DNA from: Candidatus Margulisiibacteriota bacterium
Lineage (GTDB): Bacteria; Margulisbacteria; WOR-1; O2-12-FULL-45-9
Assembly (NCBI GenBank): GCA_043816785.1
Contig: JBDRHP010000061.1
Span: forward strand, 1 to 22,304
Reading direction: 5' to 3'
Length of the DNA: 22,304 nt
The position numbers were made by a program, and so were the translations under genes. Position 1 is the stretch's first letter. Each line of letters opens with the position of its first letter. The notes beneath the pieces were generated by a model, which saw only the letters and a list, made by a program, of their open reading frames with translations, was not told the DNA's origin and did not search any database. Positions 1,405 through 22,196 of this stretch are shown here, one piece after another.

Positions 1405-4400
1405 CTATTTATGATAGTCCTGCAGCGCCTTAACCGTAAACCCCTTTTTCTTGACCGACTCCAGGCCATTAACAGTGGCGCGGGTGCCGGATAAAGTGGT
1501 CACGATCGGAATCATGTGCATTATAGCACCGGAGCGTATCTTAGTCTCATCCACCTTGGTCTTTTTATCTCCCGGTGTATTGATCAAAAGCTTGACCTCG
1601 CCGTTCTTGACCAGATCCAGGACATCCGGCCGGCCTTCGCCCAATTTGGCCACTGCCTCAACCTCCAGACCGTTCTTACGCAAAACTTCTGCAGTACCTG
1701 AGGTGGAGACGATCTGATAACCCAAAGCCGCAAGGCGCTTGGCTAACCCAACGATCTTGCGTTTGTCACGGTCATTGACCGAAACAAAAACCTTTCCCTC
1801 CAGGGGGATCTTCTGGCCGGCCGCGATCTGGGCCTTCATGTAGGCAACGCCAAAATCCGCATCGATTCCCATGACCTCACCCGTCGATTTCATCTCCGGC
1901 CCGAGCACCGGGTCAACCCCTGGAAAACGATTAAAAGGAAAGACTGCTTCTTTAACTGAAAAGTGCTCTGGAACAATTTCTTTCTCAACGCCTAATTCCT
2001 TAAATGATCTTCCAAGCATTACTTTTGTCGCAATGGTCGCCCAGGGCACACCAGTTGCTTTGCTGACATAAGGAGCAGTACGCGAAGCACGAGGGTTAAC
2101 TTCCAGCACATACAGTTTGCTGTCCTTGACCGCATATTGGATATTCATCAACCCCTTGACCTTCAGCTCCTTGGCCAGCGCCTGGGTCGCTTTTCTGATC
2201 TCTTCCAAAATGGTTTTAGAGAGAGAAAAGGTTGGGATAACGCAGGCCGAATCTCCGGAATGGATACCGGCTTCCTCAATATGCTCCATGATCCCACAAA
2301 TAACAGTTTTCTTGCCGTCAGAAACCGCATCAACGTCAATTTCGATCGCGTCATCCAGAAACTTATCTACCAGGATCGGCTTTTCCGGGGAAGCGATGAC
2401 CGCTTTCTGCATGTATTCTTCCAGGTCGCCTTCATCATAGACTATGACCATGGCCCGGCCGCCCAAAACATAAGAAGGACGCACCACTGCCGGATAACCA
2501 ATGCGTTTAGCGATCTTCTTGGCTTCGGCAAAAGAAGTGGCAGTCCCGTTAGCCGGCTGGGTCAGTTTAAGTTTCTTAAGCAGGGACTTAAAACGCTTGC
2601 GATCTTCCGCCCGGTCAATTGAATCGACCGAGGTCCCCAAGATCGGCACTCCAGCATCCTCCAGCTGGCGAGCCAGGTTAAGCGGTGTTTGGCCGCCAAA
2701 TTGAACAATAACGCCTTCTGGTTTTTCCTTCTCAACGATATGCAGAACATCTTCGCGGGTCAGTGGCTCAAAGTATAAACGATCAGAAGTGTCAAAATCA
2801 GTTGAAACTGTTTCTGGGTTAGAGTTAACCATTATCGATTCGTAACCTTCTTCTTTGATGGCGAACGAAGCGTGACAGCAGCAATAATCAAATTCAATGC
2901 CCTGCCCAATCCGGTTGGGCCCGCCACCCAGGACCATGATCTTTTTCTTGTCCGTGGCCCGGCATTCATCTTGGGAATTATCATAAGTCGAGTAGAAATA
3001 TGGTTTCATCGGGTCAAATTCACCTCCACAGGTATCCACCAGTTTATAAACCGGGGTGATTCCTTTTTTCTTGCGATGATCGTAGACCGCGACCTCGTCG
3101 CTGCCGATGAGATAGGCGATCTGGATATCGGAAAACCCGAGGCCCTTAGCATCCTTCAGCAATTTATCCGGTATATCAGCCAGCTTATGCTTGGCGACCT
3201 TCTCTTCCATTTCAAAGATCTCGCGCATCTGATTAATGAACCACGGGTCGATATTAGAAAGATCATGGATCTCTTGATCGCTCATGCCATTCTTGATCGC
3301 GTAACGCAGCCAGAAGATGCGGTCGGCGTTGGGATAGACCAGCTTCTGCTTGACCAGTTCTGCATCACCTGAAAGCTCTGGCGGAACATCCCGGCCATCC
3401 GCTCCTAATCCATATCGACGATATTCAAGTGAACGGATACCTTTTTGCAAAGATTCTTTATAATTGCGGCCAATTGACATGGCTTCACCCACAGCCTTCA
3501 TGGAAGTGGACAGGATCGGGTCAGCCTCCGGAAATTTTTCAAAAGTAAAACGACAAACCTTGAACACACAATAGTCAACTGTCGGCTCAAAGAACGTGTA
3601 GGTCTTGCCGGTCACCTGGTTGACGATCTCATCCAGCGACAGACCAATGGCTAATTTAGCCGCGACCCGGGCAATAGGAAAACCGGTCGCTTTTGAAGCT
3701 AAGGCTGAAGAGCGTGAGACACGCGGATTAATTTCAATAATTACTACTTTGCCATCATCAGGATTAACCGCAAATTGAATATTGGTGCCGCCGCCATTGA
3801 TCCCCACCGCCCGGATGATCTTCTTACACCAGTTCTCCAGGTCAACAAACTCTTCAGTGGTTAAAGTCTGGGCCGGAGCAACAACGATCGAATCCCCGGT
3901 ATGCACACCCATTGGATCGATATTTTCCATTGAGGTCACGATAACTACGTTATCCTTGCAGTCACGGATCACCTCAAACTCGACTTCTTTCCAGCCCAAC
4001 ACTGATTGCTCGACTAAAACTTGTTTGAGAGGGGAAACATCCAGCGCCAGCTCCAGTCCAGCCTTCAATTCATCAATATTATATGCGCAGGAGCCGCCCG
4101 CCCCGCCCATGGTAAAAGCAGGCCGCAAGATTATCGGAAAACCGATCTTTTCTCCCAGCACTAAGCCTTCTTCAACGCTAGTCGCAATACCTGACTCAGG
4201 CACAGCCATGCCAATGCTAGCCATGGTCTCTTTGAACTTTTTTCTGTCCTCGGCCCGCTCGATCGCCTTGGCATCTGCGCCAATGATCTCTACCCCATAT
4301 TTTTGCAAGATGCCTGCCTTGGATAAGAAAAAGCCCATATTAAGACCAGTCTGCCCGCCCAAGGTAGGCAGCAAAGCATCCGGTCTTTCCTTGGCAATTA

Positions 4401-4629
4401 TCTTTTCGATAAATTCCGGATCCAGGGGTTCAATATAAGTATGATCAGCCATGCCTGGATCGGTCATAATGGTGGCTGGATTGGAATTGATCAGGACTGT
4501 TTCGTAGCCTTCCTCTCTCAAAGCTTTACAAGCCTGTGACCCGGAGTAGTCAAACTCACAGGCAGAACCAATAATGATCGGTCCGGAGCTGATGATCAGG
4601 ATCTTTTTAATGTCTGTTCGTTTTGGCAT
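1405..4629 (-). CDS. carB: Carbamoyl-phosphate synthase large subunit
   Basis: 1074 aa. MPKRTDIKKIL...ACEFDYSG; two ATP-grasp halves (GVHTGDS, EINPRVSRSSALASKATG; GPNRIGQGIEFDY, GIHSGDS, EVNPRASRT); C-terminal MGS-like domain. RBS GGAGGGG upstream of the ATG. Confidence 0.98.
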   Translation of the reverse strand: MPKRTDIKKILIISSGPIIIGSACEFDYSGSQACKALREEGYETVLINSNPATIMTDPGMADHTYIEPLDPEFIEKIIAKERPDALLPTLGGQTGLNMGFFLSKAGILQKYGVEIIGADAKAIERAEDRKKFKETMASIGMAVPESGIATSVEEGLVLGEKIGFPIILRPAFTMGGAGGSCAYNIDELKAGLELALDVSPLKQVLVEQSVLGWKEVEFEVIRDCKDNVVIVTSMENIDPMGVHTGDSIVVAPAQTLTTEEFVDLENWCKKIIRAVGINGGGTNIQFAVNPDDGKVVIIEINPRVSRSSALASKATGFPIARVAAKLAIGLSLDEIVNQVTGKTYTFFEPTVDYCVFKVCRFTFEKFPEADPILSTSMKAVGEAMSIGRNYKESLQKGIRSLEYRRYGLGADGRDVPPELSGDAELVKQKLVYPNADRIFWLRYAIKNGMSDQEIHDLSNIDPWFINQMREIFEMEEKVAKHKLADIPDKLLKDAKGLGFSDIQIAYLIGSDEVAVYDHRKKKGITPVYKLVDTCGGEFDPMKPYFYSTYDNSQDECRATDKKKIMVLGGGPNRIGQGIEFDYCCCHASFAIKEEGYESIMVNSNPETVSTDFDTSDRLYFEPLTREDVLHIVEKEKPEGVIVQFGGQTPLNLARQLEDAGVPILGTSVDSIDRAEDRKRFKSLLKKLKLTQPANGTATSFAEAKKIAKRIGYPAVVRPSYVLGGRAMVIVYDEGDLEEYMQKAVIASPEKPILVDKFLDDAIEIDVDAVSDGKKTVICGIMEHIEEAGIHSGDSACVIPTFSLSKTILEEIRKATQALAKELKVKGLMNIQYAVKDSKLYVLEVNPRASRTAPYVSKATGVPWATIATKVMLGRSFKELGVEKEIVPEHFSVKEAVFPFNRFPGVDPVLGPEMKSTGEVMGIDADFGVAYMKAQIAAGQKIPLEGKVFVSVNDRDKRKIVGLAKRLAALGYQIVSTSGTAEVLRKNGLEVEAVAKLGEGRPDVLDLVKNGEVKLLINTPGDKKTKVDETKIRSGAIMHMIPIVTTLSGTRATVNGLESVKKKGFTVKALQDYHK

Positions 4630-4640: not shown

Positions 4641-5657
4641 CTATACCTTTTTATATCCCGGATCAAGTTTGCCTCGTTCATCGATCGGAAAATATAACGC
4701 GGCAACACAGCTGCCGTCCTTGGATTGGATTTTTTCGATCGTCTTGTCATTGAGATTGACGTGAACAACCTTTACTCCGCTGGGAACGGCTGTGATCCCG
4801 TAGCTGTGGTTTTGCACTGAGATCTCGCCCCTGCCGGTCTTGGTGTCAACCACGGGGTGGTTGACACCGTGGTGTCCGACCTTCATGCGGTCAACCGTGC
4901 ACCCAAGGGCCATGGCCAGGACACAGGCACCGTTCTGGATACCGTAGATAGAAACCTTGCCAATCAGCTTTTTGATCTCTTCGACCAGACCGGTCAGCTT
5001 TCTGGGATCACCCGGCCCGCTGGAGATGACCACCTGTTCCGGCTTCTTTTCAAGTATTTTTTCAGCTGTAACATTATGAGGAACCACTTTAGCCCCGGCG
5101 AACTTGGACAGCGTACTATTATTAACCCCCAGGTTGATGATAACAGTAGTTGTTCCGGGTTTGGCCTTGGGGCCTTCCATGCCAGAGGTTGTTTCCGCTA
5201 CCAGATCCGGAAGCTTATAGCCTTTTGCTTTGTTTACAAGACTTTCCTTATTAAAATCTTCAGTGGAAACGATACCTCTCATTTCCCCGTTGTCGCGGAT
5301 ATGGATAGTCAAGGCGCGGGTATCGATGCCTTCGATACCAATGACCTTGTTCTTTTTCATAAAATCATCAAGAGAACCCTTGGCCTGCCAGTTGCTGTAA
5401 ACCTTGCTGTATTCCTTAACCACAAAAGCCGAAGCATGGGCTTTATCAGACTCATTGCTGCGGTCATTGATCCCGGCATTGCCAACATGAGGATAGCCTA
5501 TGGCAAGGATCTGCTTAGCATAAGCCGGATCAGTCATAATCTCCTGAAAACCAACTACCTGGGTGTTAAAAACAACTTCCCCGGCCACTTCTCCTTCTGC
5601 CCCAAAAGAAACCCCTTCAAACATCGTTCCGTCTTCCAACGCTAAAACTGCTTTCAT
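4641..5657 (-). CDS. carA: Carbamoyl-phosphate synthase small subunit homolog with degenerate glutaminase active site
   Basis: MKAVLALEDG, GEVVFNT, TDPAY, GIDTRALT, SSGPGDP, GHHGVNHPV, QNHSY. Start at ATG 5657 with RBS AGGGAGG (338 aa). The catalytic motifs GICLG and HPE read GIQNG and FPI. Confidence 0.93.
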   Translation of the reverse strand: MKAVLALEDGTMFEGVSFGAEGEVAGEVVFNTQVVGFQEIMTDPAYAKQILAIGYPHVGNAGINDRSNESDKAHASAFVVKEYSKVYSNWQAKGSLDDFMKKNKVIGIEGIDTRALTIHIRDNGEMRGIVSTEDFNKESLVNKAKGYKLPDLVAETTSGMEGPKAKPGTTTVIINLGVNNSTLSKFAGAKVVPHNVTAEKILEKKPEQVVISSGPGDPRKLTGLVEEIKKLIGKVSIYGIQNGACVLAMALGCTVDRMKVGHHGVNHPVVDTKTGRGEISVQNHSYGITAVPSGVKVVHVNLNDKTIEKIQSKDGSCVAALYFPIDERGKLDPGYKKV

Positions 5658-5678: not shown

Positions 5679-5698
5679 CCTGCCTGCCGGCAGGCAGG
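5679..5698. repeat. Perfect 20-bp GC-rich palindrome (REP-like) CCTGCCTGCCGGCAGGCAGG
   Basis: The sequence equals its own reverse complement; it lies between the leader terminator and the carA RBS. Confidence 0.8.
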
Positions 5699-5699
5699 C

Positions 5700-5728
5700 A
5701 AAAAAAAACGCCCCTTTCGGGCGTCTTT
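5700..5728 (-). terminator. Intrinsic terminator/attenuator in the carAB leader
   Basis: Minus strand AAAGACGCCC-GAAAG-GGGCG followed by a run of 9 T; lies between the promoter and the carA start. Confidence 0.85.
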
Positions 5729-5731
5729 GCC
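5720..5731 (-). promoter_or_regulatory. Candidate ANTAR-binding RNA hairpin overlapping the terminator 5' arm
   Basis: GGC-AAAGAC-GCC: 3-bp stem and hexaloop with A at position 1 and G at position 4; mutually exclusive with the terminator stem; ANTAR gene adjacent. Confidence 0.65.
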
Positions 5732-5744
5732 ATTTAACATATAA

Positions 5745-5773
5745 ATTATACCAAAAACTCAAGCCCTTGTCAA
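5745..5773 (-). promoter_or_regulatory. Consensus sigma70 promoter of carAB
   Basis: TTGACA (5773-5768), 17 bp spacer, TATAAT (5750-5745), with extended -10 TG. Confidence 0.9.
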
Positions 5774-5774
5774 A

Positions 5775-6197
5775 CTAAAGCTCATAAGCAGAAAGGATCG
5801 AGTGCGCGATATCGCGCATAGAGCGGCCGGAATCCATGCTCTGTTCCTGGAGTTTTCGGTAAGCCTCAGTAGGCAGAATATCGAACTGAGCGATTAAGAT
5901 TTCCTTAGCGCGTTCAATAATCCTGCGGTCATCCAAAGCCTTTTGCAATTCCCCAACCTTCTTGCGTAATTTCCAGTTTTCTCGACGTATCTGATCATTG
6001 CTTCGCTTATCAGTTAATTTATAAATAGTTGCCCGAGCCTTACCTTCTTTTTTGATCAGACCTTGTTTAATAAGAGGTGCTATGAGCTGATTGATCCTGG
6101 CACGGGTCAAAGCTAAAGACTGCTGAAGCTCTTTTGTGCAAAGACTCGGATGCTGGGCCAATAATTTTAGAATTTGTTCCTGACGACTGTTCAGCAT
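5775..6197 (-). CDS. Winged-helix HTH + coiled coil + ANTAR domain regulator
   Basis: N-terminal LNSRQEQILKLL...ELQQSLALTRARINQLIAPLIKQGLIKKEGKARATIYKL (wHTH). C-terminal LQKALDDRRIIERAKEILI...EAYRKLQEQSMDSGRSMRDIAHSIL (ANTAR signature). Confidence 0.88.
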   Translation of the reverse strand: MLNSRQEQILKLLAQHPSLCTKELQQSLALTRARINQLIAPLIKQGLIKKEGKARATIYKLTDKRSNDQIRRENWKLRKKVGELQKALDDRRIIERAKEILIAQFDILPTEAYRKLQEQSMDSGRSMRDIAHSILSAYEL

Positions 6198-6203: not shown

Positions 6204-6232
6204 ATTATATCAATTTATCCCGAGCTTGTCTA
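6204..6232 (-). promoter_or_regulatory. sigma70 promoter of the wHTH-ANTAR gene, probably giving a leaderless mRNA
   Basis: TAGACA-17 bp-TATAAT with extended -10 TG; only 6 nt between the -10 and ATG 6197; no SD. Confidence 0.75.
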
Positions 6233-6235
6233 GGG

Positions 6236-6257
6236 AATCGTCAAGAAATCGTCAAGA
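6236..6257. repeat. Perfect 11-bp tandem direct repeat (AATCGTCAAGA x2), candidate operator
   Basis: 6236-6246 and 6247-6257 are identical; 3 bp upstream of the -35 of the regulator gene. Confidence 0.7.
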
Positions 6258-6332: not shown

Positions 6333-8792
6333 TTACTGAGAAACAGCATGCATCACTTCATCAACACCTATTTTTTCTCCGTAACTGATATGTATTTTAT
6401 TGTTTGAATCAATTACCAAAGAATTATAATATCCATTACCAGTGCTTTCTTCACCGCCTGGATCAACCGTCTGATACACCCAACTTCCAGATGTATTATT
6501 CATATATTTCAAAGAATTTTGATAACAATAACTTATATGAACTTTATTATTAGAGTCTACACCCAATGATGCATTAGCCTTATTTCCTGACGTATCAGCA
6601 AATCCCTGGGGTAATGCCTCAGTTATCCATCCTCCACTCATATTGGTTGCATATTTCCGAGAATTTGGTGAGCTTACCCCATAACTAATATGGGCCTTAT
6701 CATTAGAATCCAAAGACATTGAAACACCAATTGGAATAAGATTATTAAGATCATCTACTATTTCTTTCGGCCATGTTCTACCAACATTTTCAGTTGTGTA
6801 TTTTACTGCATGATTTGTTGTATCCCCATAACTAATATGCACTTCATCATTACTATCTAAAGCTATTGATGTGCCATATACATATACCGAATCAATTGTG
6901 GCTGTGCTCCAATTCCCCGAAGCGTTTCTTATGTATTTAAGTGAACGAGAAGAGTTGCTTTCATCTCCAGCGCAAGCAATATGTACTTTGCCGCTTGAAT
7001 CTACTGCAATAGAAAGATAGGATACCGGGGAGAGGTCAGGGAAAGTCCCCCCCTCTGTTACCCAGGCTCCAGAACTATTGGTTGCATATTTAAGAGCACG
7101 AGCAGTGTCAAGGTAACACACATGAGCATATCCATTTGAATCTACCGCTATCGATGGAGTAGATGCATTATTATAAGCATTTGAACTAATCGTTTCAGTA
7201 ACCCAACTACCAGACGCATTGGTTACATATTTTAGATCCTGATCAGATAAACCTTTATAGCACATGTGAACCTTGTTATTTGAGTCTACTGCGATTGCAG
7301 TTTGTGGTAAGTTTACTGAACCCACAGATTCTCTAACAAAGGGTACCCCCGCAGTTGTAAAACTCCACGTATAATCATTAGCTAAATCATTTCCAGACAA
7401 ATCTGCAATATCACCCTTATCAACTAAAACCGTATATGCCGTTCCCCCAGCTATTGGGTAATCATTGCTACGAGTTATAATATTATTATTAGAATTATAA
7501 GAAATGCTTCCACTGAACCACCCCTTATAAGCAGAAGATAGCTGAACCGAGGCCAAAGTTAACGGAGAATCATCTATCCCCTCACTAAAAGTTACGGTTA
7601 TATCCGTATCTTCAGACACTCCAGTTGCCCCACTTACAGGAGTTATAGAAGTTACCGTGGGTGGCGTTGTATCATCATGCGCTGCAGTTGCAAACGACCA
7701 ACTGTAGGGGCTTAACATACTATTCCCTACAGCATCTTTTACAGTCCTGTCCACGGCAACAGTATAGGCATGATTTCCATCAAGATCACTTAAAGGTTTA
7801 AATGTGGCAACAAATAAAGCGTCATTATAAACAACTGTTCCTAAAACATTGCTGGATCCGGAAACCACAATTGTATTAGTATTAATAGTAGAATCATCCA
7901 TTGCTTCCGAAAAACCTATTTTAATTTCTCTGTTTATATCAATCTCAGTTGCTCCACTAGAGGGGTAAGTTTTTACTACTGTCGGAGGGGTCGTATCTGC
8001 AGAACACGTTGTTGTAAACGTCCAACTATAGTTGCTTCCCATTTGATTTCCTACTACATCTGCTACGGTTGAAGCAACTGTTGCCACATAGGTTGTACAA
8101 AGATCTAAGTTAGAAGTTGGATCAAATTTTGCCGTTCTAGTGTTTTCGACATAGCTTACTGTTCCTGCAATCTGCGAGTTTGGCGATGATAAAATAAATG
8201 TAGAAGAACTGATCGTTGAGGTATCCATGTCCTCATCAAACGTTGCCGTCACATTTGTTCCTTGCGAAACACCGGTAGCACCATGAACTGGATATTCAGA
8301 TGATACATGGGGAGGCGCTGCATCTACTGTGCTAGATGTGGTAAACGACCACGTATAATCGCTTGCCATTTGATTCCCTGCTATATCCCTTACGGTGGAA
8401 GAAACTACTGCTGTATATGTAGTACTCAAAGCTAGATAGGATGTCGGGTTTATGGTAGCAATATAAGTAGTCGAGTCATAACTTACTGTTGCTGCAACTT
8501 GCCCTGATGAAGACGATAAAGTAAAAGAATTTGTGTCAATTGATGTTGGATCCAGATCTTCAGTAAAGGTTGCAATTACATTAATACCTATAGACACATC
8601 AGTTGCTCCACTAATAGGATAAACATCAGCAACTTGAGGAGGAGTTGTATCACCTCCTGGTACGACAACTTGCCCACATCCTCCACTTAAGTAAAAAGAA
8701 CCAAGACCTATTATCAGAATAAGTATGGCCCCAACACCAAGACTATAAACATGAGGCCTACGAAAGAAATTAAATATTTTTTCAATTAACAC
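6333..8792 (-). CDS. Secreted/membrane-anchored surface protein with 4 bacterial Ig-like (Big_5/SbsA-type) repeats and a C-terminal 7-repeat beta-propeller; possible lipoprotein
   Basis: GTG start with RBS AAGGAG. Hydrophobic N-terminus then LSGGCG. Four DxxPPxV...P..GAT.V...F.E..D...D..GN...Y.WSF(T/A)T repeats and seven (s)iavDSnnkvHisY repeats. Markedly AT-rich codons. Confidence 0.85.
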   Translation of the reverse strand: MLIEKIFNFFRRPHVYSLGVGAILILIIGLGSFYLSGGCGQVVVPGGDTTPPQVADVYPISGATDVSIGINVIATFTEDLDPTSIDTNSFTLSSSSGQVAATVSYDSTTYIATINPTSYLALSTTYTAVVSSTVRDIAGNQMASDYTWSFTTSSTVDAAPPHVSSEYPVHGATGVSQGTNVTATFDEDMDTSTISSSTFILSSPNSQIAGTVSYVENTRTAKFDPTSNLDLCTTYVATVASTVADVVGNQMGSNYSWTFTTTCSADTTPPTVVKTYPSSGATEIDINREIKIGFSEAMDDSTINTNTIVVSGSSNVLGTVVYNDALFVATFKPLSDLDGNHAYTVAVDRTVKDAVGNSMLSPYSWSFATAAHDDTTPPTVTSITPVSGATGVSEDTDITVTFSEGIDDSPLTLASVQLSSAYKGWFSGSISYNSNNNIITRSNDYPIAGGTAYTVLVDKGDIADLSGNDLANDYTWSFTTAGVPFVRESVGSVNLPQTAIAVDSNNKVHMCYKGLSDQDLKYVTNASGSWVTETISSNAYNNASTPSIAVDSNGYAHVCYLDTARALKYATNSSGAWVTEGGTFPDLSPVSYLSIAVDSSGKVHIACAGDESNSSRSLKYIRNASGNWSTATIDSVYVYGTSIALDSNDEVHISYGDTTNHAVKYTTENVGRTWPKEIVDDLNNLIPIGVSMSLDSNDKAHISYGVSSPNSRKYATNMSGGWITEALPQGFADTSGNKANASLGVDSNNKVHISYCYQNSLKYMNNTSGSWVYQTVDPGGEESTGNGYYNSLVIDSNNKIHISYGEKIGVDEVMHAVSQ

Positions 8793-8803
8793 ATCTTATC
8801 TCC

Positions 8804-11560
8804 TTACTTTGCTAAATCCTGCAATATCTTCTTCAATTCCTGCAGCCTGTCGCCAAAAGCGCCAAAATCACCCTGACGCAGTTTTGACTGCGCCTGATTG
8901 TAGATCTCCAGTCCCTTTTGAGCCAGCACTTTGGGGCTCAAATCCTGGCGAGCCTCTACCCTGACCCGGGAACTTGATACCTTGCCGGAAAAGACAGCAG
9001 ACAAAGCCCGATCAAGCGTTTCTTCCATAGCCACATTTTTGTCATAAACCGCGATCACCCGTTTCAGCTCCGGCAGCTCACCAGAGGAAGCCTCCAGATA
9101 GATCGGCTCAATATATAGAATTGATTGTTCGATCGGTATCGCTAAAAGATTACCGCGAATGACCCGCGAGCCCACCTGCCCCCAAAGCGTGAACTGCTGG
9201 GAAATTTCTGTTTGCTGGTCGATCCTGGCTTCGATCTGCATTGGCCCGTAGATCAGTTTATCTTTGGGGAATTTGTAAACGATCAGTTTGCCGTAATTTG
9301 GCAGGTCAGAGCGGCCCGCCAGCCAGGCGATCATGTTATCTTTGTTGTTTGGCGTGAACGGCTGCATCAGCAAAAACTCTTCCCTTTCCTCCTGCGGCAG
9401 CTTCATAATTATGTAATACGGCACCATAGGAACTTCTGAGCCGGCATAGATCTCCTTAGGCGTGTGCCAGAGGTCTTCCTGGTTATAAAAGACTTCCGGA
9501 TCATCCATATGAAAAGCCGCGTACTTATTCGCCTGGACTTTGAATAGGTCTTCTGGATAACGCAGGTGCTTTTTCAGGCCTTCCGGCATCTGGGCAACCG
9601 GTTTAAACAGCGCTGGATAGATCTTTTGATAAGTTTTTATCAGTGGGTCCTTATCATCAACAATATAATATGTAACATCGCCATTGTATGCATTGATAAT
9701 GACCTTAACTGAATTACGGATGTAATTAAATTTGTCAAAGCCTGAGCCAGTTGGATCCGAATACGGATACAGGTCCGAAGTAGTATAAGCATCCTGGATC
9801 CAGAAAAGCTTGCCGTCAGAGACAACAATATAGGGATCGCGGTCATAGCGCAGGAAAGGCATGATCTTTCTCACCCGCTGGTGAATGTTGCGGTCAAATA
9901 AAATTCGGCTATCAGAAGTGATGTAGTCTGTCAGCAGGATCTTCAGATCAGCGTATTTGATCGTAAAGGCCAGGCGCCGCCAAATCGAGCTGATCTGCAC
10001 CCCGCCCTTGCCCTGGTAGGTAGTATAGATGTTCTTATCCCCCTTGGGATAATCAAATTCTTGCTCAGAGGTTTTGACAATAACATAATTATTAGTCTCT
10101 TCACCGTAATAAAGCTCCGGACGTTTTATCTTTAAGTTGGTTTTTGTTTCCGGCGGGATATTCTTGATCAGCAGATCAGGCAAGCCCTCCTGGGTCTGCT
10201 CGTTAACCGGCGAAAGACAAACCCCATAGCCGTGAGTGAACTTCAAATGCTGGTTAACCCAGGTCTGGGCCTTCTCAGGCAGCTTGCCGACCTTAAGTTC
10301 GCGTGCTGAGAGCATTACCTGCTGGTATTTGCCCTTGATTTCATAACGGTCAACATCCACATCATTAAAATCATAGTAAAGGCGGATGCCCTGCAGCTGG
10401 CGGTAGGTCTTGATCAAGGGCCGCGGATCCCAGAGCCGGATATTGCTGATGGTCTGGTTATTGCGCCGCAGGTCGCGCAGGCTCAAATTGTAATTAGCGG
10501 CAAATTCTTTTTCCTCGATCTTATCCAGGCCGTAAGCTAAACGCGTAAATTTAATTCCATTAGCTATATACGGCGCTTCCATAGATATTTCGCTGGGCTT
10601 GACCTGAAGGTTTTGGACGATTGCCGGATAAATGCCGCCCATGGCAATGGCCACCACAATGTATGCGGCAATCCCAGCTATCGGCAGCCGGTTTTCTTTA
10701 ATAAAGATGGTCAAGACAAAAAGCGCTGCCGTGATCATTAGCACAAAGATCTGTAAATTGTAACCGAGCAGCTGAGCTGTAACATCGGCATAGCCAGCGC
10801 CAAAAACCACGCCGCGCACTGAATACAATATTTCCAGCTCACCCAGCCATAAGCCCCAGGTAAAAACCAGGGTGATCGCCGCCAAGAGAATTGCCAGATG
10901 GGGTTTTACTCCCCGGCCGAAAGAAAGTTTAAGCTGAGAAAAAGAGATACTGCCGGATATCAGGTAATTCCAGATAGCAGCGATGGTTGAGAGCAGCAGC
11001 GCGGAGAAAATAAAACCCTGCAAAAACTTCTGCAAAGGAAAGTTAAAAACATAAAACCCCACATCATAGCCAAAGACCGGATCGCTGACACCAAACGCCG
11101 AAGCGTTTAGGGCTTTGAGCACAACCTGCCATTGGGTAACAGCTGACAGCCCCATGAAGATCGAAACCACCAGGATGCCGAGGCCCCACAAGAGATTGAT
11201 CTTTTTCTCCAGGCCTGGATCCGGGGTAACGTTGACGTAATCTCCGCCTTCGCTGCCCCTTTCTTCACCAAACAGCTGCGAGATCATCTTTTTTAGGTCT
11301 CTCTCAGGCCGTAGCTTGGTCTGTCGGGTTCCTTTGGTCAGCCAGCGCGCCACAAAGATGTTGCTGGCGGCAATAAGCAAAAACAGCAGGCCAAAACCAA
11401 GGCCAGTCAAAGCCTGAGCCTTGATATTCATCCAGAAAATTGAAGCAAAGCCCAGGTTATCAAACCAGAGCAAAGTAGGAAAAAGCGAGACCAGCCCCTG
11501 AAAAATAAACCAGAAAACAAAGAGCAGAAAGATCATTAATCCAAACGGAAATTTACGCAT
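8804..11560 (-). CDS. UPF0182 family membrane protein (COG1615-like)
   Basis: 918 aa. N-terminal TM helices with LWFDNLGF, DPVFGYDVGFYVF, GAGYADV; then NIRLWDPRP, DVDRY, FTHGYG, NYIRNSVK, HLRYPEDLF, VIRGNLL, LPELKRVI. RBS AAGGAGG. Confidence 0.95.
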   Translation of the reverse strand: MRKFPFGLMIFLLFVFWFIFQGLVSLFPTLLWFDNLGFASIFWMNIKAQALTGLGFGLLFLLIAASNIFVARWLTKGTRQTKLRPERDLKKMISQLFGEERGSEGGDYVNVTPDPGLEKKINLLWGLGILVVSIFMGLSAVTQWQVVLKALNASAFGVSDPVFGYDVGFYVFNFPLQKFLQGFIFSALLLSTIAAIWNYLISGSISFSQLKLSFGRGVKPHLAILLAAITLVFTWGLWLGELEILYSVRGVVFGAGYADVTAQLLGYNLQIFVLMITAALFVLTIFIKENRLPIAGIAAYIVVAIAMGGIYPAIVQNLQVKPSEISMEAPYIANGIKFTRLAYGLDKIEEKEFAANYNLSLRDLRRNNQTISNIRLWDPRPLIKTYRQLQGIRLYYDFNDVDVDRYEIKGKYQQVMLSARELKVGKLPEKAQTWVNQHLKFTHGYGVCLSPVNEQTQEGLPDLLIKNIPPETKTNLKIKRPELYYGEETNNYVIVKTSEQEFDYPKGDKNIYTTYQGKGGVQISSIWRRLAFTIKYADLKILLTDYITSDSRILFDRNIHQRVRKIMPFLRYDRDPYIVVSDGKLFWIQDAYTTSDLYPYSDPTGSGFDKFNYIRNSVKVIINAYNGDVTYYIVDDKDPLIKTYQKIYPALFKPVAQMPEGLKKHLRYPEDLFKVQANKYAAFHMDDPEVFYNQEDLWHTPKEIYAGSEVPMVPYYIIMKLPQEEREEFLLMQPFTPNNKDNMIAWLAGRSDLPNYGKLIVYKFPKDKLIYGPMQIEARIDQQTEISQQFTLWGQVGSRVIRGNLLAIPIEQSILYIEPIYLEASSGELPELKRVIAVYDKNVAMEETLDRALSAVFSGKVSSSRVRVEARQDLSPKVLAQKGLEIYNQAQSKLRQGDFGAFGDRLQELKKILQDLAK

Positions 11561-11887: not shown

Positions 11888-13106
11888 GCTGACTATAATC
11901 CCAAGGCATGCCCGGTTTTCCCACGTCCTCAGAAATAAAGATTTTCTATTTCTCTGGCTTGACCAGCTCATGTCCCAATTAGCTGACAGGTTTCTGCTTT
12001 ACGTCTTGCTCGTCATTGCCTACGGCGCGACCAGGAGCAACCTGGGCGCCAGCCTGCCGCTGCTGGCCTTTGGCGGCTCCGCGGTCGTTTTCGGCCCGAG
12101 CGCCGGGGTCTTCGTTGATCGCTGGAACAAAAAGCTGGTCATGGTTATTGCCAATCTCCTGCGCGGCGCTTTGATCCTGCTCTTGATCCCGTTCATCGGC
12201 CACCACCTGGGCGAGATCTTCCTGCTCAGTTTTATAATATTTTCTGTATCGCAATTTTTTGCCCCTGCGGAAACAGCCAGTATCCCTACGTTGGTGGAAA
12301 AAAGGGATCTAATAGCAGCTAACTCCCTGTTCATGATGACCCTGATGGTTGCCTCGATCATCGGCATCGGAGCGGCAGCCCCATTGACCAATTTTTTTGG
12401 CATCAGAACGGTCCTGATCATTTCTGCCTCTTTGCATTTGACATCAACCTTGGCCACATTCATGATCTCTCTGAAGCACAAAAAGAAAAGTACCAGCCCC
12501 AGCTTAATGAACCTGTTCAAGGAATTAATCATGGGCCTAGAATACATCCGGCGCAAATCCATTATTCGCTTTGCTTTGGCCAAGCTGTTCTTTGCCACTG
12601 CAGTCCTGGCAACCATCTGCTTGTTAGCGGTTAGTTTTTCCGAAAAGATCTTAGGCATAGGAGCCAAGAACTTTGGCTACCTGATCCTTGCCGCTGGCAC
12701 CGGCATGGCCATAGGCGCCTTGTTCGTGGGCCGTTTTGGTCATCATTTCAAGAAGGACCGCCTGGCCCATCTAGGTTTTTTGCTGGCCGGCTGTTCCCTG
12801 CTCATCCTGGCCAATGCGCAGGACCTGTGGATCGTGCTGGCCACGATCTTTTTCCTTGGCGCAGGCAACGCCTTTATTGTTTCGCCGCTGCAGACGATAC
12901 TGCATGAAAAAGTCCCCCGATCGATCCGCGGCCGGGTCTTTGGCGTTCAAAATATGTTCATTAACTCAGCTTTTACTTTTCCTGTCGTAATCTTCGGCGA
13001 GCTGGCAGATCTGATCGGTTTACGCACCATCATCCTTGTGCTGGGCGCTTCTGTCCTGTTCAGCGGAGCGTTGGACACACTTGTATCTTTTTTCCAGCGG
13101 GATTAA
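11868..13106 (+). CDS. MFS transporter (DHA3/MFS_3-like, 12 TM)
   Basis: FLFLWLDQLMSQLAD, motif A (AGVFVDRWNKK), QFFAPA, GRVFG. Start uncertain (first ATG at 11868, overlapping DUF2892). Stop overlaps the convergent gene at TTAA 13103-13106. Confidence 0.9.
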   Translation: MLKPVNKLTIIPRHARFSHVLRNKDFLFLWLDQLMSQLADRFLLYVLLVIAYGATRSNLGASLPLLAFGGSAVVFGPSAGVFVDRWNKKLVMVIANLLRGALILLLIPFIGHHLGEIFLLSFIIFSVSQFFAPAETASIPTLVEKRDLIAANSLFMMTLMVASIIGIGAAAPLTNFFGIRTVLIISASLHLTSTLATFMISLKHKKKSTSPSLMNLFKELIMGLEYIRRKSIIRFALAKLFFATAVLATICLLAVSFSEKILGIGAKNFGYLILAAGTGMAIGALFVGRFGHHFKKDRLAHLGFLLAGCSLLILANAQDLWIVLATIFFLGAGNAFIVSPLQTILHEKVPRSIRGRVFGVQNMFINSAFTFPVVIFGELADLIGLRTIILVLGASVLFSGALDTLVSFFQRD

Positions 13107-14605
13107 ACAATCAGGTAATTAAAGAAGCATAATAAGATCACCAGGGCGATGATCATCCAAAGCAAATGAGTATTTAGGTTCCTGGCATGCAGTTGCCTCA
13201 TTTTGTTACAGCTGGCCACCAGGACATCAACCGACCGGTTACTAAGGCGGTCCAGGCTGAGAATATCCCACAGAGCTATGTTCTGGAGTCGGTCTGACCG
13301 GAGAACAAGCCAATAAATGCCTGAACCCAGTAAAATGACCAGCCCTGCGTCAAAAAATAACCAGAAGCTCCATAAGTTCTTGTCCAACACCAACCCGACC
13401 GCTGAAGCAACATAGCCCAGGACCGGCTGAGCCATAAGTCCGACCACCAGACAACCAGCGGCCAAAAGCAACATTGGCAGGACCATCAGCCAGGGAACTT
13501 CTTTGGTTTGCTCAAGCTTGGCCGGCAGCTCTCCCAGAAACGCGCCGCAGAACAACTTAAGCATCAAAGCGAACGTGCCGGCAGAGGTCAGGACAAGAAC
13601 GACCTTCAAGGCCGGGGCTGCCGAAGCGGCCGCGGACAAAAGAGCCTTGCTGGCAAAACCGTTAAAAGGCGGGATCCCGGTAATGGCCAAAGCGCCAAAA
13701 GCAAAAGCTAGCGTGGTCAAAGGCATGCGCTGCCCTAAGCCGCCCAGTTTGTCCAGATCACGTTCACGCGTAGCAAAAATGATCGCGCCAGCACAGAGAA
13801 AGAGCAGCATTTTGAACATGGCATGGTTAAGCATATGGAACAAGCCGCCGCTCACCCCTAACCCAGTCGCCAGGCCAAAACCCAGCACAACATAACCCAT
13901 TTGGCTGATGCTGCTATAAGCCAGCAATTTTTTTATATTGGTCTGCTTTAAGGCCAGGACCACGCCAAAGAGCATGGAAATAGCACCAGCCCAGACCAAG
14001 GTTGAGTTGATCAGACCCAGGACGAACATCAGACGCAGCACACCATAAGCCCCGATCTTTATGGCAATGCCGGATAAGAGAGCTGAGATCGGCGACGGCG
14101 CGACCGGATGAGCCTCCGGCAGCCAGATATGGAACGGCACTGTCCCCACCTCGAACAAAAAACCGATCAGGAACAAACCAAAGATCAGTCCCAGCTTGGC
14201 CTGAGGCAAAGTAGAAGCAACATTGGCAATAGCGGCCAGATCAAATGTGCCGGTCAGGTTATACAGCATTAACGAGGCCAGCAACAGGAACAGTCCGCCC
14301 AAAAACATCATTAAGATATACTTAAAACCAGCGGGAAAGGACTCTTTCTTGGTGTTGTCAATGATCAGGAAATATATGCCGACTGTCATGATCTCCAGGA
14401 ACACATAAAGAGTTAAAAGGTCCCTGGCCAGCACTGATCCGACCATGCCAATTAAAGCAAGCAAAAGAACAAAATAATAGCGAAAGAAGTTCCGGCGCAC
14501 GTAAGCCAGTGAATAAACAAAGACCATGGGAAATAGACAGGCGATCATGATCAACATGAATTTGCTTAGGCCATCGATCGGCCACATTGGCACAGTAAAG
14601 ATCAT
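13103..14605 (-). CDS. Second antiporter-like subunit (MrpD/MrpA/NuoL-M family) of the Mrp-type complex
   Basis: YVFLEIMT, PFHIWLPEAHPVAPSPISALLSG, KKLLAYSSISQMGY, HMLNHAMFK, GIPPFNGFASK. Start at ATG 14605 by ATGA overlap with the upstream stop. C-terminal amphipathic segment plus a final TM helix. Confidence 0.9.
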   Translation of the reverse strand: MIFTVPMWPIDGLSKFMLIMIACLFPMVFVYSLAYVRRNFFRYYFVLLLALIGMVGSVLARDLLTLYVFLEIMTVGIYFLIIDNTKKESFPAGFKYILMMFLGGLFLLLASLMLYNLTGTFDLAAIANVASTLPQAKLGLIFGLFLIGFLFEVGTVPFHIWLPEAHPVAPSPISALLSGIAIKIGAYGVLRLMFVLGLINSTLVWAGAISMLFGVVLALKQTNIKKLLAYSSISQMGYVVLGFGLATGLGVSGGLFHMLNHAMFKMLLFLCAGAIIFATRERDLDKLGGLGQRMPLTTLAFAFGALAITGIPPFNGFASKALLSAAASAAPALKVVLVLTSAGTFALMLKLFCGAFLGELPAKLEQTKEVPWLMVLPMLLLAAGCLVVGLMAQPVLGYVASAVGLVLDKNLWSFWLFFDAGLVILLGSGIYWLVLRSDRLQNIALWDILSLDRLSNRSVDVLVASCNKMRQLHARNLNTHLLWMIIALVILLCFFNYLIV

Positions 14606-16068
14606 GGCGCCAGCACCTTGACCGCGGGCTCGATCAGGCTCAGGACCACACCAGGAAATAATCCGACCAAAAGACACAAAGCGGCAAAAACATAGGTTGA
14701 AAAATGCTCAAAAGGCCCGACTGGTATCGGCACAAAATCAGGTTTTTGCTTAAAATCTTCTTGAGAAAAAAATGTCTGGATGACCCGGAAGAAATAAGCC
14801 GCGGTCAAAAGTATGCCAAAAAAAACAAAGGCCAGCAGAAAGTAGTTCTGCTTCTGCAGCACGGCCTCAATAATGAACAATTTACTGGCAAACCCATTGA
14901 ACGGCGGGATGCCGATCACGGCCAGCGCCAAAGCGCAAAAAGCAATAGTCATGCCAGGCATTTTCCGCCAGACACCCTTCATCTGATCGATCCGCCAGAA
15001 ACCTGTTTGGGAAATAATAATACCAGCACAGAAAAATAACCCTGTCTTGATCAGCGCATGGTTGAAGATATGGAACAATCCGCCCTGAAAGCCAATACTT
15101 GAACCCAAACCAATGGCGATCAGGATAAAGCCGATCTGATTGATGCTTGAAAAAGCCAGCAGCTTTTTGAGCTCATCCTGGGCCAGGGCCAGACAAGCAC
15201 CGACAACCAGGGTAATAACACCTAAATACGTAAGGATACTGCTCATGCCATCCATAAAAATGGTCGAACCAAAAAATAAAAAGAAGACCCGCAGTATGGC
15301 GTACAAGCCGACTTTGAGGATCAAACCTGAAAGCAAACCGCTGACCGGGGTCGGCGCCTGGGAATGTGTTTCAGGGATCCAGGTATGCATGGGAAAGATG
15401 CCGCACTTAACGCCAAAAGCGGTCAGCATCAGGGCAAAGATCAAATAGACGACATGAGGATTAGCTTGATAGATGCCGGGGATCTGCGCGGCTATCTGGT
15501 CCATGTTCAAACTACCCGTCAGACCATAAAGCAAGGCAATGGCCAGCAAAAAAAGCACCCAGGCTGATTCGGTCATGATCAGGTATTTAAAACTTGCCTT
15601 GATCGCCCGGTCCTTGTGTTTATAAGTCACCAAAACGTAAGAAGCCACGGCCAGGACCTCAAAGAAAACGTACATATTGAATATATCACGGGTCAGTACG
15701 ATACCCAAAATACCTGCCAGAGCGACCAGTAGCAGCGAATAATATCTTCTGGCATATAAATAGGTGCCCAATGAATAAACAACGATCAATAGACCGATGC
15801 CCAGGACAAGACTGGCAAAGAAGAAGCTTAAACCATCCACCTGCAGACTGATGCCAACTGGCGGCGGCCAGCCGCCCAGATCATATTTAATAACTTCACC
15901 GGAAAAAATCTGAGGAACAAGCATCAGCAGAAAAAAAAGCGACGAGCCCAGACCGGTAACAGCCACAAGTTCCGCACCTCTTCTTAAAGGCGTGTATTTG
16001 GTCAAGTGGGTCAAGAAAGCTGCCAGCAATGGCAGCACAATTATAAGGATTGCCGCATGCCCGATCAT
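14602..16068 (-). CDS. mrpD: Mrp-type Na+/H+ antiporter subunit D (MbhH-like)
   Basis: GGWPPPVGISLQVDGLS, DIFNMYVFFEV, KCGIFPMHTWIP, KKLLAFSSINQIG, NHALIK, PPFNGFASK. Confidence 0.92.
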   Translation of the reverse strand: MIGHAAILIIVLPLLAAFLTHLTKYTPLRRGAELVAVTGLGSSLFFLLMLVPQIFSGEVIKYDLGGWPPPVGISLQVDGLSFFFASLVLGIGLLIVVYSLGTYLYARRYYSLLLVALAGILGIVLTRDIFNMYVFFEVLAVASYVLVTYKHKDRAIKASFKYLIMTESAWVLFLLAIALLYGLTGSLNMDQIAAQIPGIYQANPHVVYLIFALMLTAFGVKCGIFPMHTWIPETHSQAPTPVSGLLSGLILKVGLYAILRVFFLFFGSTIFMDGMSSILTYLGVITLVVGACLALAQDELKKLLAFSSINQIGFILIAIGLGSSIGFQGGLFHIFNHALIKTGLFFCAGIIISQTGFWRIDQMKGVWRKMPGMTIAFCALALAVIGIPPFNGFASKLFIIEAVLQKQNYFLLAFVFFGILLTAAYFFRVIQTFFSQEDFKQKPDFVPIPVGPFEHFSTYVFAALCLLVGLFPGVVLSLIEPAVKVLAP

Positions 16069-16397
16069 TTATCCTCCAGGATCTTGTCAACATTTAGGGT
16101 TTTATACTTGTCATATATCCTTATGGCCAAGGCCAGCGCCAAAGCGGTAATACCAAGCCCTATTACCAAACTCGTCAGCATGACAGCCTGCGGCAGCGGA
16201 TCAACGATCAGTTCTTCTGCGCCCTCTAATATAGCCGCGCGGCCGCCTGCAATATAGCCGATACTGATAAAAAGAAGAATGACACCTGAATTCATCAGGT
16301 AAAGCGACATGATCATCTTGATCATATTGCGCTTGCTCAATATCCCGTAAAGACCGACCAGGACAACAATAACGCCCAAGGATATCCCGTTTATCAT
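16065..16397 (-). CDS. mrpC: Mrp antiporter subunit C (NuoK/MbhG-like)
   Basis: GLYGILSKRNMIKMI, DPLPQAVMLTSLVIG; ATGA overlaps on both sides. Confidence 0.93.
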   Translation of the reverse strand: MINGISLGVIVVLVGLYGILSKRNMIKMIMSLYLMNSGVILLFISIGYIAGGRAAILEGAEELIVDPLPQAVMLTSLVIGLGITALALALAIRIYDKYKTLNVDKILEDK

Positions 16398-16816
16398 AAT
16401 TTATGCCTCACTGTGCGGTAAAAGATGACTGCGATCCCGGTGCCGACCATAAAACCAATGGTCAGGTTAAGCAATAGGATCAGGCCGGTGCTCGGCACAG
16501 TGCCAATCTCGCCCCGCGGCAGGAAATCTGACAGAAAAGAATAGCCCATGAACATGCCGGCAAAACCAAGCAGGATAAAAATGATCATGCCGATGTTCTT
16601 GGTCAAGGAAAGCAGATTTTCGTGAAATCTTTTTTCAGCATTGCGCACGCCGTCGACCAGACCGAGCAGGATAATGGCTGAGCCAATAATAACACCACCC
16701 TGGAAGCCGCCGCCGGGCGACAAATGGCCGTGCGAGATCAGATAACAGCCGTAAAGCAGGATAAAGGGGAAGAGCTTTCTGGTCAAGGTCCTGACTATAG
16801 TGGATCTTCTATCCAT
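16394..16816 (-). CDS. mrpB: Mrp antiporter subunit B (MnhB/MbhF-like)
   Basis: HGHLSPGGGFQGG motif; start placed at ATG 16816 (MDRRSTIV) after RBS AGGAG. Confidence 0.9.
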   Translation of the reverse strand: MDRRSTIVRTLTRKLFPFILLYGCYLISHGHLSPGGGFQGGVIIGSAIILLGLVDGVRNAEKRFHENLLSLTKNIGMIIFILLGFAGMFMGYSFLSDFLPRGEIGTVPSTGLILLLNLTIGFMVGTGIAVIFYRTVRHKL

Positions 16817-17081
16817 CGGGCTCTCCTTTTTTGAGCTTGCGCAGCAGCATGTATACGCCCAGGGCTGAAGCAAAAAAGACCGTGGCCTCTCCCAATGTGT
16901 CATAAACACGGTAATTCAGATAAATCGCCGTGACCAGGTTAAGAGCGCCGGTCTCAGCAACGCCGTTAGCCACATAATATTCTGATATTCCAGAACGAGG
17001 GCGGCCGTAATCCAGCTGGACCGCGTTCAGGATAAAATATCCCAGTACGATCAAAACGACCACTATCAGGATGCGTTTCAT
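16809..17081 (-). CDS. MbhE-like subunit (stand-alone MrpA/MrpB-related segment)
   Basis: ETGALNLVTAIYLNYRVYDTLGEATV matches the NxVTAIxxxYRxxDTLGE signature. Confidence 0.85.
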   Translation of the reverse strand: MKRILIVVVLIVLGYFILNAVQLDYGRPRSGISEYYVANGVAETGALNLVTAIYLNYRVYDTLGEATVFFASALGVYMLLRKLKKGEPDG

Positions 17082-17308
17082 TCCTCATGCCTCCTGGTCT
17101 TGCTGATCGCCACAACAAAAAGGACCGTGGAAACACCCGCGCCGATCGCAGCTTCCGCGATCGCAATATCCAAAGCATGCAATCTAAAGAATAATAAGGT
17201 CAGCACCAGACTGAAAGCAGCTAAAACAATAGCCGCATTGAGCAGATCTTTCATTTCAATGGCCACTATCGCGGTCAGGATCAATACTAGATAGAAGATC
17301 TCGTTCAT
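17078..17308 (-). CDS. MbhD-like / DUF4040 subunit
   Basis: DLLNAAI...ALDIAIAEAAIGAG (APDVAxTEAxVGAG-type motif), 3 TM helices. Confidence 0.85.
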   Translation of the reverse strand: MNEIFYLVLILTAIVAIEMKDLLNAAIVLAAFSLVLTLLFFRLHALDIAIAEAAIGAGVSTVLFVVAISKTRRHEE

Positions 17309-17610
17309 TGCTTTTTGTCCTTCTGCTGCCAGGGTTTGATGCCGGATTCCAAGGCACCCCGCGCTATGACATGGGAAGCGACCGGGCTGGTGATCAAAAT
17401 AAATAAGGATATCAGGGCCAGCCTCAAGGTCAGGGCAGAAAGACCGGAATAGATCATCAAACCAATAAAGATCGACAAGCCCCCTGCTGTCCCACCCTTG
17501 CCTGCCGGATGGATCCTGGTATAAAGGTCAGGGAACCTGATCAAGCCTATTACGCCAAAAGTCAGGAAGAACAAGCCAAGAATAAAAAATCCATAAGCTA
17601 ACCAGATCAT
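17305..17610 (-). CDS. mrpG: Mrp antiporter subunit G (MbhC-like)
   Basis: GLIRFPDLYTRIH, TSPVASHVIARGA. Confidence 0.92.
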   Translation of the reverse strand: MIWLAYGFFILGLFFLTFGVIGLIRFPDLYTRIHPAGKGGTAGGLSIFIGLMIYSGLSALTLRLALISLFILITSPVASHVIARGALESGIKPWQQKDKKQ

Positions 17611-17870
17611 TTATGCAGCTCCCTCCCGGTCAGATATTTTGATATAGCAATTACGGAAACGTAGCCAAGGATAGCGTAAACCAATGCCACGTCAAAATAG
17701 ACATGGCGTTCAAACTCAACCGCCAGGGTAGCGATTATTACAGTGATATTGAGCACGAGCAGGTTTAAGCCGATCAAACGGTCAAACGGGGTTGGTCCAA
17801 TAAATACCCGCATCAGACAGACCAGCGCGGTCAGTGAAAGAAAAAAGACCATGGCTGAGAGCGGATTCAA
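17607..17870 (-). CDS. mrpF: Mrp antiporter subunit F (MbhB-like)
   Basis: RVFIGPTPFDRLIGL, YFDVALVYAILG; TTG start overlapping the mrpE stop, RBS GGAGGA. Confidence 0.9.
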   Translation of the reverse strand: MNPLSAMVFFLSLTALVCLMRVFIGPTPFDRLIGLNLLVLNITVIIATLAVEFERHVYFDVALVYAILGYVSVIAISKYLTGRELHK

Positions 17871-18379
17871 TAGAATATCCTCCCTAATTGCGCCTCAAAA
17901 TTGCCCTTGATCTGCTTGGCCGCCTGGTTAGAATCGCTGGTATCCATGACTAGCCAGTGTACGAACAGTTCATCATCCTTCAGATCGATCGCGACTGTGC
18001 CGGGGGTCAAGGTGATCGAATTCGCCAGAAGCGCTCGGCCCAATTTAGAACCCAGCTTGGTCTTGATCTTGATGATGCCCGGATTGATCTTCATAGTAAT
18101 GACGCGGTAAACAACATTGAAGCTGCCCAGATATATTTCCCAAAGCAATATCAGCAGGTAGAAAATAAAGAGTTCAAACCTGGGCAGGATGCCCCGCTGG
18201 ACCTTTTCTTCCTTCTCAATGAACAAGTCATATGTAGCCAGAGCAATGACCAGGGAAAAAGCCCCGCCCAAAAGAAGCGAGAAGGGATCAAGGCTAAAAG
18301 TGAACAAATACCACAACAACATGAGAAAGATAAAGGTAATTATAATACTGTTAATTTTTTCCAGCTGTCCAATCTTCAT
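17867..18379 (-). CDS. mrpE: Mrp antiporter subunit E (MbhA-like)
   Basis: INPGII, LANSITLTPGT, LFVHWL; ATG at 18379. Confidence 0.93.
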   Translation of the reverse strand: MKIGQLEKINSIIITFIFLMLLWYLFTFSLDPFSLLLGGAFSLVIALATYDLFIEKEEKVQRGILPRFELFIFYLLILLWEIYLGSFNVVYRVITMKINPGIIKIKTKLGSKLGRALLANSITLTPGTVAIDLKDDELFVHWLVMDTSDSNQAAKQIKGNFEAQLGRIFY

Positions 18380-18386
18380 TGGCAAG

Positions 18387-22108: not shown

Positions 22109-22196
22109 AATCTCTAATGCCCTCACCCCAATTTATTCTTAATTGAATATTATTCTTTTATGACCCCTCTCCCAGAGGAGGGTGTCCAATAACACT

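Follow-up and report, generated by a model that had tools for sequence, protein, structure and literature searches.

The window, the whole stretch of 22,304 nucleotides that was analysed, belongs to contig JBDRHP010000061.1 of a Candidatus Margulisiibacteriota genome (GCA_043816785.1). On its minus strand, the gene of a 140-residue putative regulator (5775..6197) is followed by carA* (4641..5657), which encodes a small subunit of carbamoyl-phosphate synthetase (CPS) without the catalytic Cys and His-Pro-Glu, and by a full-length carB (1405..4629), which contains a CarB C-terminal half, the only one that we found in this genome. The regulator gene ends at 5775, 1 bp before the −35 box of a TTGACA-17-TATAAT promoter (5745..5773, minus strand; −35 at 5773-5768, −10 at 5750-5745) that matches the consensus at 12 of 12 positions and carries an extended TG. 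Downstream on the same strand lies a single ANTAR-type hairpin, GGC-AAAGAC-GCC (5720..5731), with A and G at loop positions 1 and 4 (A1, G4), overlapped by an intrinsic terminator with a 9-U run (5700..5728; stem 5728-5704, U run 5708-5700). The terminator shares 9 of the 12 hairpin bases, and the folds are mutually exclusive, with predicted folding energies of −15.1 kcal/mol for the terminator versus −3.6 kcal/mol for the hairpin state. The carA* ribosome-binding site (RBS; 5670-5664, minus strand) precedes an ATG at 5657; a longer open reading frame from TTG 5762 was rejected in favour of this ATG on the basis of the RBS and homologues. An earlier sequence-only reading had picked out the promoter, the GC stem, the 9-U run, the RBS, the ability of the 5′ stem arm to form the hairpin (now placed at 5731-5720) and the ANTAR gene abutting the −35 box; all are present, on the minus strand.

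By itself, such a promoter is not unusual: the genome has 11 perfect matches with 17-bp spacing. Among 67 terminator-like sites in the 1.53-Mb genome, a single one overlaps a 3-bp A1/G4 hexaloop hairpin, and this is the carA* leader. The strict hairpin word occurs 27 times and is accompanied by a promoter and terminator only at the carA* leader; a wider regulon was rejected because the other copies have no such promoter and terminator. An Rfam scan gave five weak matches far below the gathering scores, with nothing near the cut-off and no ANTAR-leader model returned, and the leader comparisons described below are patterns and pair counts rather than a covariance model. Between the U run and the RBS sits a 20-bp palindromic genome repeat (5679..5698) with 28 exact copies in the genome. 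It is present in one relative's leader (L085) and missing from a near-identical one (L084). Because most relatives' leaders do not have it, we consider it a bystander and not part of the switch. L084 itself has an intact operator, hairpin and terminator, while its regulator frame seems broken near the 5′ end, perhaps through an assembly error.

A gene for a Big_5 repeat protein (6333-11560) is inserted between a UPF0182 gene and the regulator gene; in several relatives, UPF0182 lies directly upstream of the regulator. The window also holds a Mrp-type antiporter gene cluster (13103-18385, minus strand) and, at 18405-22126, two tandem paralogues of the alanine dehydrogenase/PNT family, a LOG/SLOG-family gene and a gene for 275 residues without a Pfam match.

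The regulator comprises a winged helix (residues ~1-62), a coiled coil (67-90) and an ANTAR domain (83-139), with Pfam matches to HTH_24 and ANTAR (PF03861: E 1e-18, 67.3 bits against a cut-off of 27.3). Its predicted structure (model pLDDT 89) features helices at 67-105, 109-123 and 127-139, forming a three-helix bundle after the coiled coil. Neither Pfam profiles nor the predicted structure revealed a recognisable sensor domain, the N-terminus being the winged helix. It is the sole ANTAR match in the genome (assembly 87% complete). We found 114 homologues of 77-245 residues, the named ones belonging to Candidatus Margulisiibacteriota and Saganbacteria; when 1.84 billion representatives were searched by profile, no other family spanned both the winged helix and ANTAR among the best 150 matches. 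An alignment with EutV shows six of ten RNA-contact residues kept or conservatively replaced in the 114 homologues (R142, K143, K147, K149, Y164 and M172). Pro occupies the E160 position in 110 of 114, the R175 and R177 positions have mostly Gly and Ser, and N173 is mostly D or E. In EutV, E160 is described as reading G4, and E160A lowered binding 60-fold (PMC8934654). Because of the changes at E160, R175 and R177, recognition of G4 must differ in detail here, or binding must be weaker. A coiled coil plus ANTAR is reported to suffice for dimerisation and RNA binding (PMC3369931), and by analogy with EutV the regulator is likely a coiled-coil dimer.

CPS halves in carA* genomes

CarA* has GIQNG at the nucleophile motif and LYFP replacing the His-Pro-Glu motif, which bears out the glutaminase-dead small subunit proposed in the sequence-only reading. 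The Cys-His-Glu triad is absent from all 16 complete genome-derived CarA* sequences (GIQNG, no HPE), and the glutamine-site residues of CarA* are changed. In CarB, those ATP-grasp motifs that were examined are kept in the N-half.

A glutaminase-intact carA is found elsewhere in the genome (locus L064 on G000:C57, 14753-18028), followed by a DUF559 gene and then by a 545-residue CarB N-half only; no separate C-half to accompany this lone N-half was found in the genome. Such a lone N-half is present in 12 of the 17 carA* genomes. C-terminal CarB pieces in three of the genomes (G004, G005 and G008) share 84-88% identity and appear to be copies of the full gene that were cut in assembly. One genome (G023) has a normal full carB in addition, and another (G033, 94% complete) has only carA* and its carB. 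Lone C-halves from six other genomes group with the C-halves of carA* operons (FastTree support 98). Single CPS halves have reportedly been seen to work alone. Because the intact carA is accompanied by a CarB N-half only, the attenuated operon may serve the glutamine route too, by lending its C-half, in addition to an ammonia route. The switch to ammonia-fed synthesis envisaged earlier is one possibility.

Contig C57 also carries a cluster of nrpR, amtB, a PII-type gene, glnA, gltBD and carA (names except NrpR read from the sequences). Two promoters of this genome, near 555 on C57 and near 41 on C14, have a palindromic spacer, ACGGCAA-N4-TTGCCGT, a candidate NrpR operator; behind the one on C57 lies a glutamate dehydrogenase-like gene, which is divergent from nrpR. 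Another set of CarA sequences, more distant and from metagenome contigs (L111-L163), has mostly Ser, Ala or another residue in place of the catalytic Cys and no HPE. The flanks examined at these loci held no ANTAR match, and several share a leader stem, GGCCAG...CTGGC. Judged from these sequences, glutaminase-dead CarA is wider than the clade of carA* with the regulator.

Conservation of the leader and linkage to the regulator gene

A full regulator gene is present in 16 of 146 genomes of the phylum and carA* lies directly downstream in all 16, as the sequence-only reading requires. Within the class, carA* occurs in 17 of 65 genomes, one copy being cut by a contig end. G023 (90% complete) has carA* without the regulator, no ANTAR match genome-wide, no hairpin and no U run. 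A metagenome scan, taken over the best 80 of 179 matches, yielded 27 loci in the close clade, 20 with the regulator gene and seven without, and these are included in the following counts of gene-bearing and no-gene loci, where 'no-gene' refers to the adjacent gene and a metagenome contig could have the regulator elsewhere in its genome. By a generic definition (3 bp, A1, G4), all 36 gene-bearing loci have the hairpin in the interval from −10 box to terminator, and a hairpin so placed is found in none of the eight carA* loci without an adjacent regulator gene; related loci are not independent, and the upstream sequence of two no-gene loci, L104 and L106, is 243 and 187 bases only. Elsewhere in the scanned 130 bases, five of the eight no-gene loci contain a generic A1/G4 hairpin, and six have no U run. 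At the two others, L104 and L108, the hairpin 5′ strand is decayed but a terminator-like stem and a U run persist. The no-gene loci fall at four places on a CarA* tree, two of them forced by well-supported branches, the tree being a quick one. A combined hairpin-plus-terminator pattern, built from the first 14 leaders, matched 14 of the 65 class genomes, once each and always at carA*, with no control matches; it misses two gene-bearing genomes with deviating terminators. Because carA*-carB stands without an adjacent regulator in 8 of 44 loci, the module of regulator, attenuator and glutaminase-dead CPS is separable. At one locus (L091), carA* has neither promoter nor adjacent regulator, and a 7-bp stem with an A1/G4 hexaloop lies over the RBS; this is a single case and may be chance.

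Removal of four duplicates from the 36 gene-bearing leaders left 32 distinct ones. All of them have an A1 and G4 hexaloop on a stem of about 3 bp, the loops conforming to ARRGRC, and all stems are paired: GGC/GCC in 20, GAC/GTC in eight, GGC/GCT in two and GGT/GCC in two. The loop is thus conserved in orthologous leaders, and the leader covaries, with a recurrent stem swap from G-C to A-U. In 15 aligned leaders, 45 of 45 stem cells pair, five of them through two-sided change; shuffling reached equal pairing in 1 of 500 trials, and slid registers gave 33-67%. At least 7 of the 12 hairpin bases are also paired in the terminator fold in 32 of 32 leaders. Position 11 pairs in both folds: all 24 leaders with C at this position form C-G in the terminator, and in the eight with U the terminator partner is A in six, G in one and unpaired in one. 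The GAC/GTC form is scattered on the quick CarA* tree (eight changes, at least four forced by well-supported branches). Because the stem changes recur, mostly with a matching change in the terminator, both folds are judged to be under selection.

In the 32 leaders, 8-23 nt (median 13-14) separate the −10 box from the hairpin, and none has a second hairpin (P1) in this interval. If transcription starts, as inferred, some 7 nt beyond the −10 box, the RNA ahead of the hairpin is no longer than 16 nt, which leaves no room for a 12-nt P1 and a 5-nt linker. A conserved P1 on read-through RNA was not found either: an upstream hairpin with A1 and G4 occurs in 1 of 32 leaders, at 24 nt, whereas the linker between the two hairpins of a canonical ANTAR attenuator measures about 5-12 nt. 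The finding of one hairpin only, entered as a caveat to the original claim, is therefore a conserved property of these leaders. This bears on what has been described for EutV, in which deletion of P1 abolishes induction, the first hairpin being needed in vivo (PMC3369931). In the EutV model, the dimer binds one hexaloop, P1 is termed the recruitment hairpin, and single hexaloops are expected where no polymerase time limit applies (PMC8934654). For NasR, binding to P2 alone is given as about 12 µM versus 1 µM, or ~12-fold weaker for one hairpin (PMC7496416). Among GAF-ANTAR genes of the same phylum, two hairpins 9-19 nt apart are found in 5 of 17 loci. At one GAF-ANTAR locus, L166, a single A1/G4 hairpin lies over terminator-like sequence, which speaks against the use of one hairpin being confined to the winged-helix form.

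The repeat at the regulator promoter

Upstream of the regulator gene, a direct repeat of 11-bp period, TTGACGAT-N3-TTGACGAT (6237..6255, minus strand), forms a likely operator; in relatives, its first copy is the −35 box of the regulator. The predicted regulator promoter, TAGACA-17-TATAAT (6204..6232, minus strand), ends 6 nt before the ATG, and its mRNA is predicted to be leaderless. Here, a short insert resembling a second genome repeat (6213-6234) lies between the operator and the −10 box and supplies a new −35; similar inserts are present at three other loci (L086, L087 and L101). The repeat was detected by script in 31 of 32 regulator promoters and by eye in the 32nd, with differing genes upstream. 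When 65 genomes were scanned for this pattern, 20 had matches, at 23 places in all, versus five control matches; of the 23, 14 are at the regulator, two at starts of Fic-wHTH genes (wHTH, winged helix), three at starts of wHTH-DUF4325-type genes (two profile-confirmed) and four are unexplained. Three wHTH-DUF4325-type loci (L195, L215 and L194) have TTTACAAT/TTGACAAT repeats at their own gene starts.

This genome also encodes a Fic protein whose C-terminal domain shares 51% identity with the winged helix of the regulator. Fic proteins with a C-terminal winged helix are common across the class; the gene in this genome (locus L065 on G000:C39, 3076-4092) has a triple repeat of 11-bp period over a predicted leaderless promoter. 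Related repeats are seen by eye at the Fic-wHTH promoters of 15 of 17 loci, the start being outside the view in the other two, and at five of five further loci from regulator-bearing genomes, where they end mostly in CA and not AT. Fic-wHTH genes thus resemble the regulator in having a TTGAC repeat of 11-bp period over the −35 box of a predicted leaderless promoter, and differ in the repeat itself: mostly TTGACRCA or TTGACGCT and often in three copies at Fic, two copies of TTGACGAT at the ANTAR regulator. The genome has only two period-11 repeat pairs, one at the regulator promoter and one at the Fic gene promoter; since pairs of this period are no commoner than those of other periods (0-2 each), the information lies solely in where they are. 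In Fic, ANTAR and DUF4325 fusions alike, the repeat accompanies the winged-helix domain. On these patterns, the simplest reading, which we consider probable, is that the regulator represses its own promoter via the repeat. A literature search found no paper on self-repression of a Fic-type or ANTAR gene via such a repeat.

Proposed mechanism, alternatives and known systems

We propose that the 140-residue protein is probably a single-hairpin antiterminator of carA*-carB that likely represses its own promoter as well; antitermination at the carA* leader, taken by itself, is very probable. Transcription would begin some 7 nt downstream of the −10 box and, by default, end at the U run. A sensorless, likely coiled-coil dimer would bind the emerging hexaloop and block the pairing of nine bases of the terminator 5′ arm, so that polymerase reads into carA*-carB. 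The winged helix and operator, apparently borrowed from a self-regulating Fic-type gene, would bind the repeat over the regulator's own −35 box and set the protein level, and output would follow the amount of free protein and not a ligand bound to the regulator. The operon products likely form an ammonia-using synthetase, and the operon may also supply the CarB C-half missing beside the glutaminase-intact CarA and the CarB N-half. Of the antitermination by the adjacent gene claimed in the sequence-only reading, linkage, loop conservation, stem covariation and joint loss of hairpin and gene speak in favour, and the canonical two hairpins are absent. Against single-hairpin antitermination stand the requirement of EutV for its first hairpin in vivo (PMC3369931), the ~12-fold weaker binding of NasR to one hairpin (PMC7496416), the replacement of the G4-reading E160 and of R175/R177 in most homologues, and the terminator-like stem and U run still present at the no-gene loci L104 and L108.

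A dimer short of one hairpin might be recruited by other means. The winged helix could dock the dimer at the carA* promoter, or loop it from the strong site ~480 bp upstream, and thereby replace the recruitment hairpin, as P1 is called in the EutV model (PMC8934654). A TTGA at 5762-5759, 11 bp after the carA* −35, is a possible weak second half-site, and the TTGA-N7-YTGA geometry matches the regulator's own promoter. A TGA at this distance is found in 14 of 32 carA* promoters, compared to 2 of 95 in the background and none of six no-gene promoters, and other spacer offsets give 0-2 TGA, the extended −10 excepted. The two hairpins at 5 of 17 loci of GAF-ANTAR relatives also fit. However, the second half-site is a poor match, with a mean of −10.9 bits that falls well short of real sites, TGA is missing from 18 of the 32, binding at the −35 would be expected to repress, common ancestry can explain part of the excess, and GAF-ANTAR locus L166 makes do with a single hairpin as well. 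We regard such DNA loading as unlikely, and equally so its extended form, in which a DNA-recruited antiterminator handed to the single hairpin would gate the cell's only complete CPS half-set, for the ammonia and glutamine modules alike. Delivery in cis, with the regulator mRNA running into the terminator and newly made protein or a weak upstream hairpin on the longer RNA acting as recruiter, draws on the distance of 42-56 nt that separates the last sense codon from the hairpin in 31 of 32 leaders, a stretch taken up by the promoter alone, and on G4-only hairpins 3-25 nt upstream in 10 of 32. It is quite improbable, given that an upstream hairpin has both A1 and G4 in a single leader, linkers are mostly 21-25 nt, stems are weak, and all 32 retain a −10 box together with a TTG-like −35.

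A ligand or partner could gate the switch under a nitrogen condition: a metabolite, or a protein in the manner of AmiC, possibly CarA* or PII. Nitrogen is described as the theme of most ANTAR targets (PMC3369931), the genome has the nrpR, amtB, PII-type, glnA, gltBD and carA cluster, and an always-on sensorless antiterminator would gain little from a terminator; these points give gating an appreciable, though minority, chance, set against the regulator in which no sensor domain was found and against CarA*, which has changed glutamine-site residues and persists without an adjacent regulator in eight loci. That CarA* senses glutamine on behalf of the regulator is unlikely: its glutamine site has been remodelled, and it is retained at those loci. 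The terminator might also be the mere end of the regulator transcript, with an incidental hairpin; it does lie close behind the regulator gene, and the hairpin has little stability of its own (median −3.9 kcal/mol). However, the terminator is downstream of a conserved promoter, and the hairpin 5′ strand, outside the terminator stem, covaries with the 3′ strand, which makes this reading very improbable.

Returning to single-hairpin antitermination with self-repression, we consider the system a genuine variant of ANTAR attenuation, confined to one lineage, with one hairpin and no sensor, and likely including self-repression at the DNA level. According to the current model, an ANTAR dimer needs the recruitment hairpin to beat the transcribing polymerase (PMC8934654). 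The carA* leader offers a natural, covarying single-hairpin terminator switch near a predicted start, and with a protein of 140 residues and a leader of ~40 nt the question is directly testable. It would imply that dual-hairpin searches miss real targets. The regulator appears to have been assembled from a DNA-binding domain together with its operator and an RNA-binding domain. For synthetic circuits, an antiterminator this small, which needs no sensor and brings its own negative feedback, could be a useful part. Our literature search, with subscription journals mostly outside its coverage, found no paper on the regulator-carA* system. The seven supplementary files of PMC3369931 gave no matches to 'carbamoyl' or 'carA', and three of nine 'carb' places inspected were not carB.

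As a CPS operon under transcriptional control, carA*-carB resembles E. coli carAB, which differs in being governed by ArgR, other DNA-binding factors, reiterative transcription and ppGpp; the same source states that glutamine is the physiological donor for all bacterial CPSs (PMC6245113). NasR of Klebsiella, whose structure 4AKK matches the regulator with E 1.7e-4, and AmiR of Pseudomonas aeruginosa are likewise ANTAR antiterminators of nitrogen operons, but these are gated, NasR by its nitrate-binding NIT domain and AmiR by its partner AmiC, and use two hairpins. GAF-ANTAR proteins of the same phylum share the ANTAR domain, often beside nitrogen genes, but have a sensor domain, and two hairpins are visible at 5 of 17 loci. 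Six such loci (L166, L170, L175, L184, L190 and L191) have ANTAR-type hairpins before downstream nitrogen genes (glutamate dehydrogenase-like and others). In the EutV system of Enterococcus faecalis (PDB 6WSH, 6WW6; PMC3369931, PMC8934654), the coiled coil plus ANTAR and a 3-bp A1/G4 hexaloop hairpin within the terminator 5′ arm of the eut leaders have counterparts at carA*, and the equivalents of R142, K143, K149, Y164 and M172 are kept. In contrast, EutV has a receiver domain where the regulator has a winged helix; the regulator does without P1, has Pro in place of E160, and has one target found per genome, a CPS operon.
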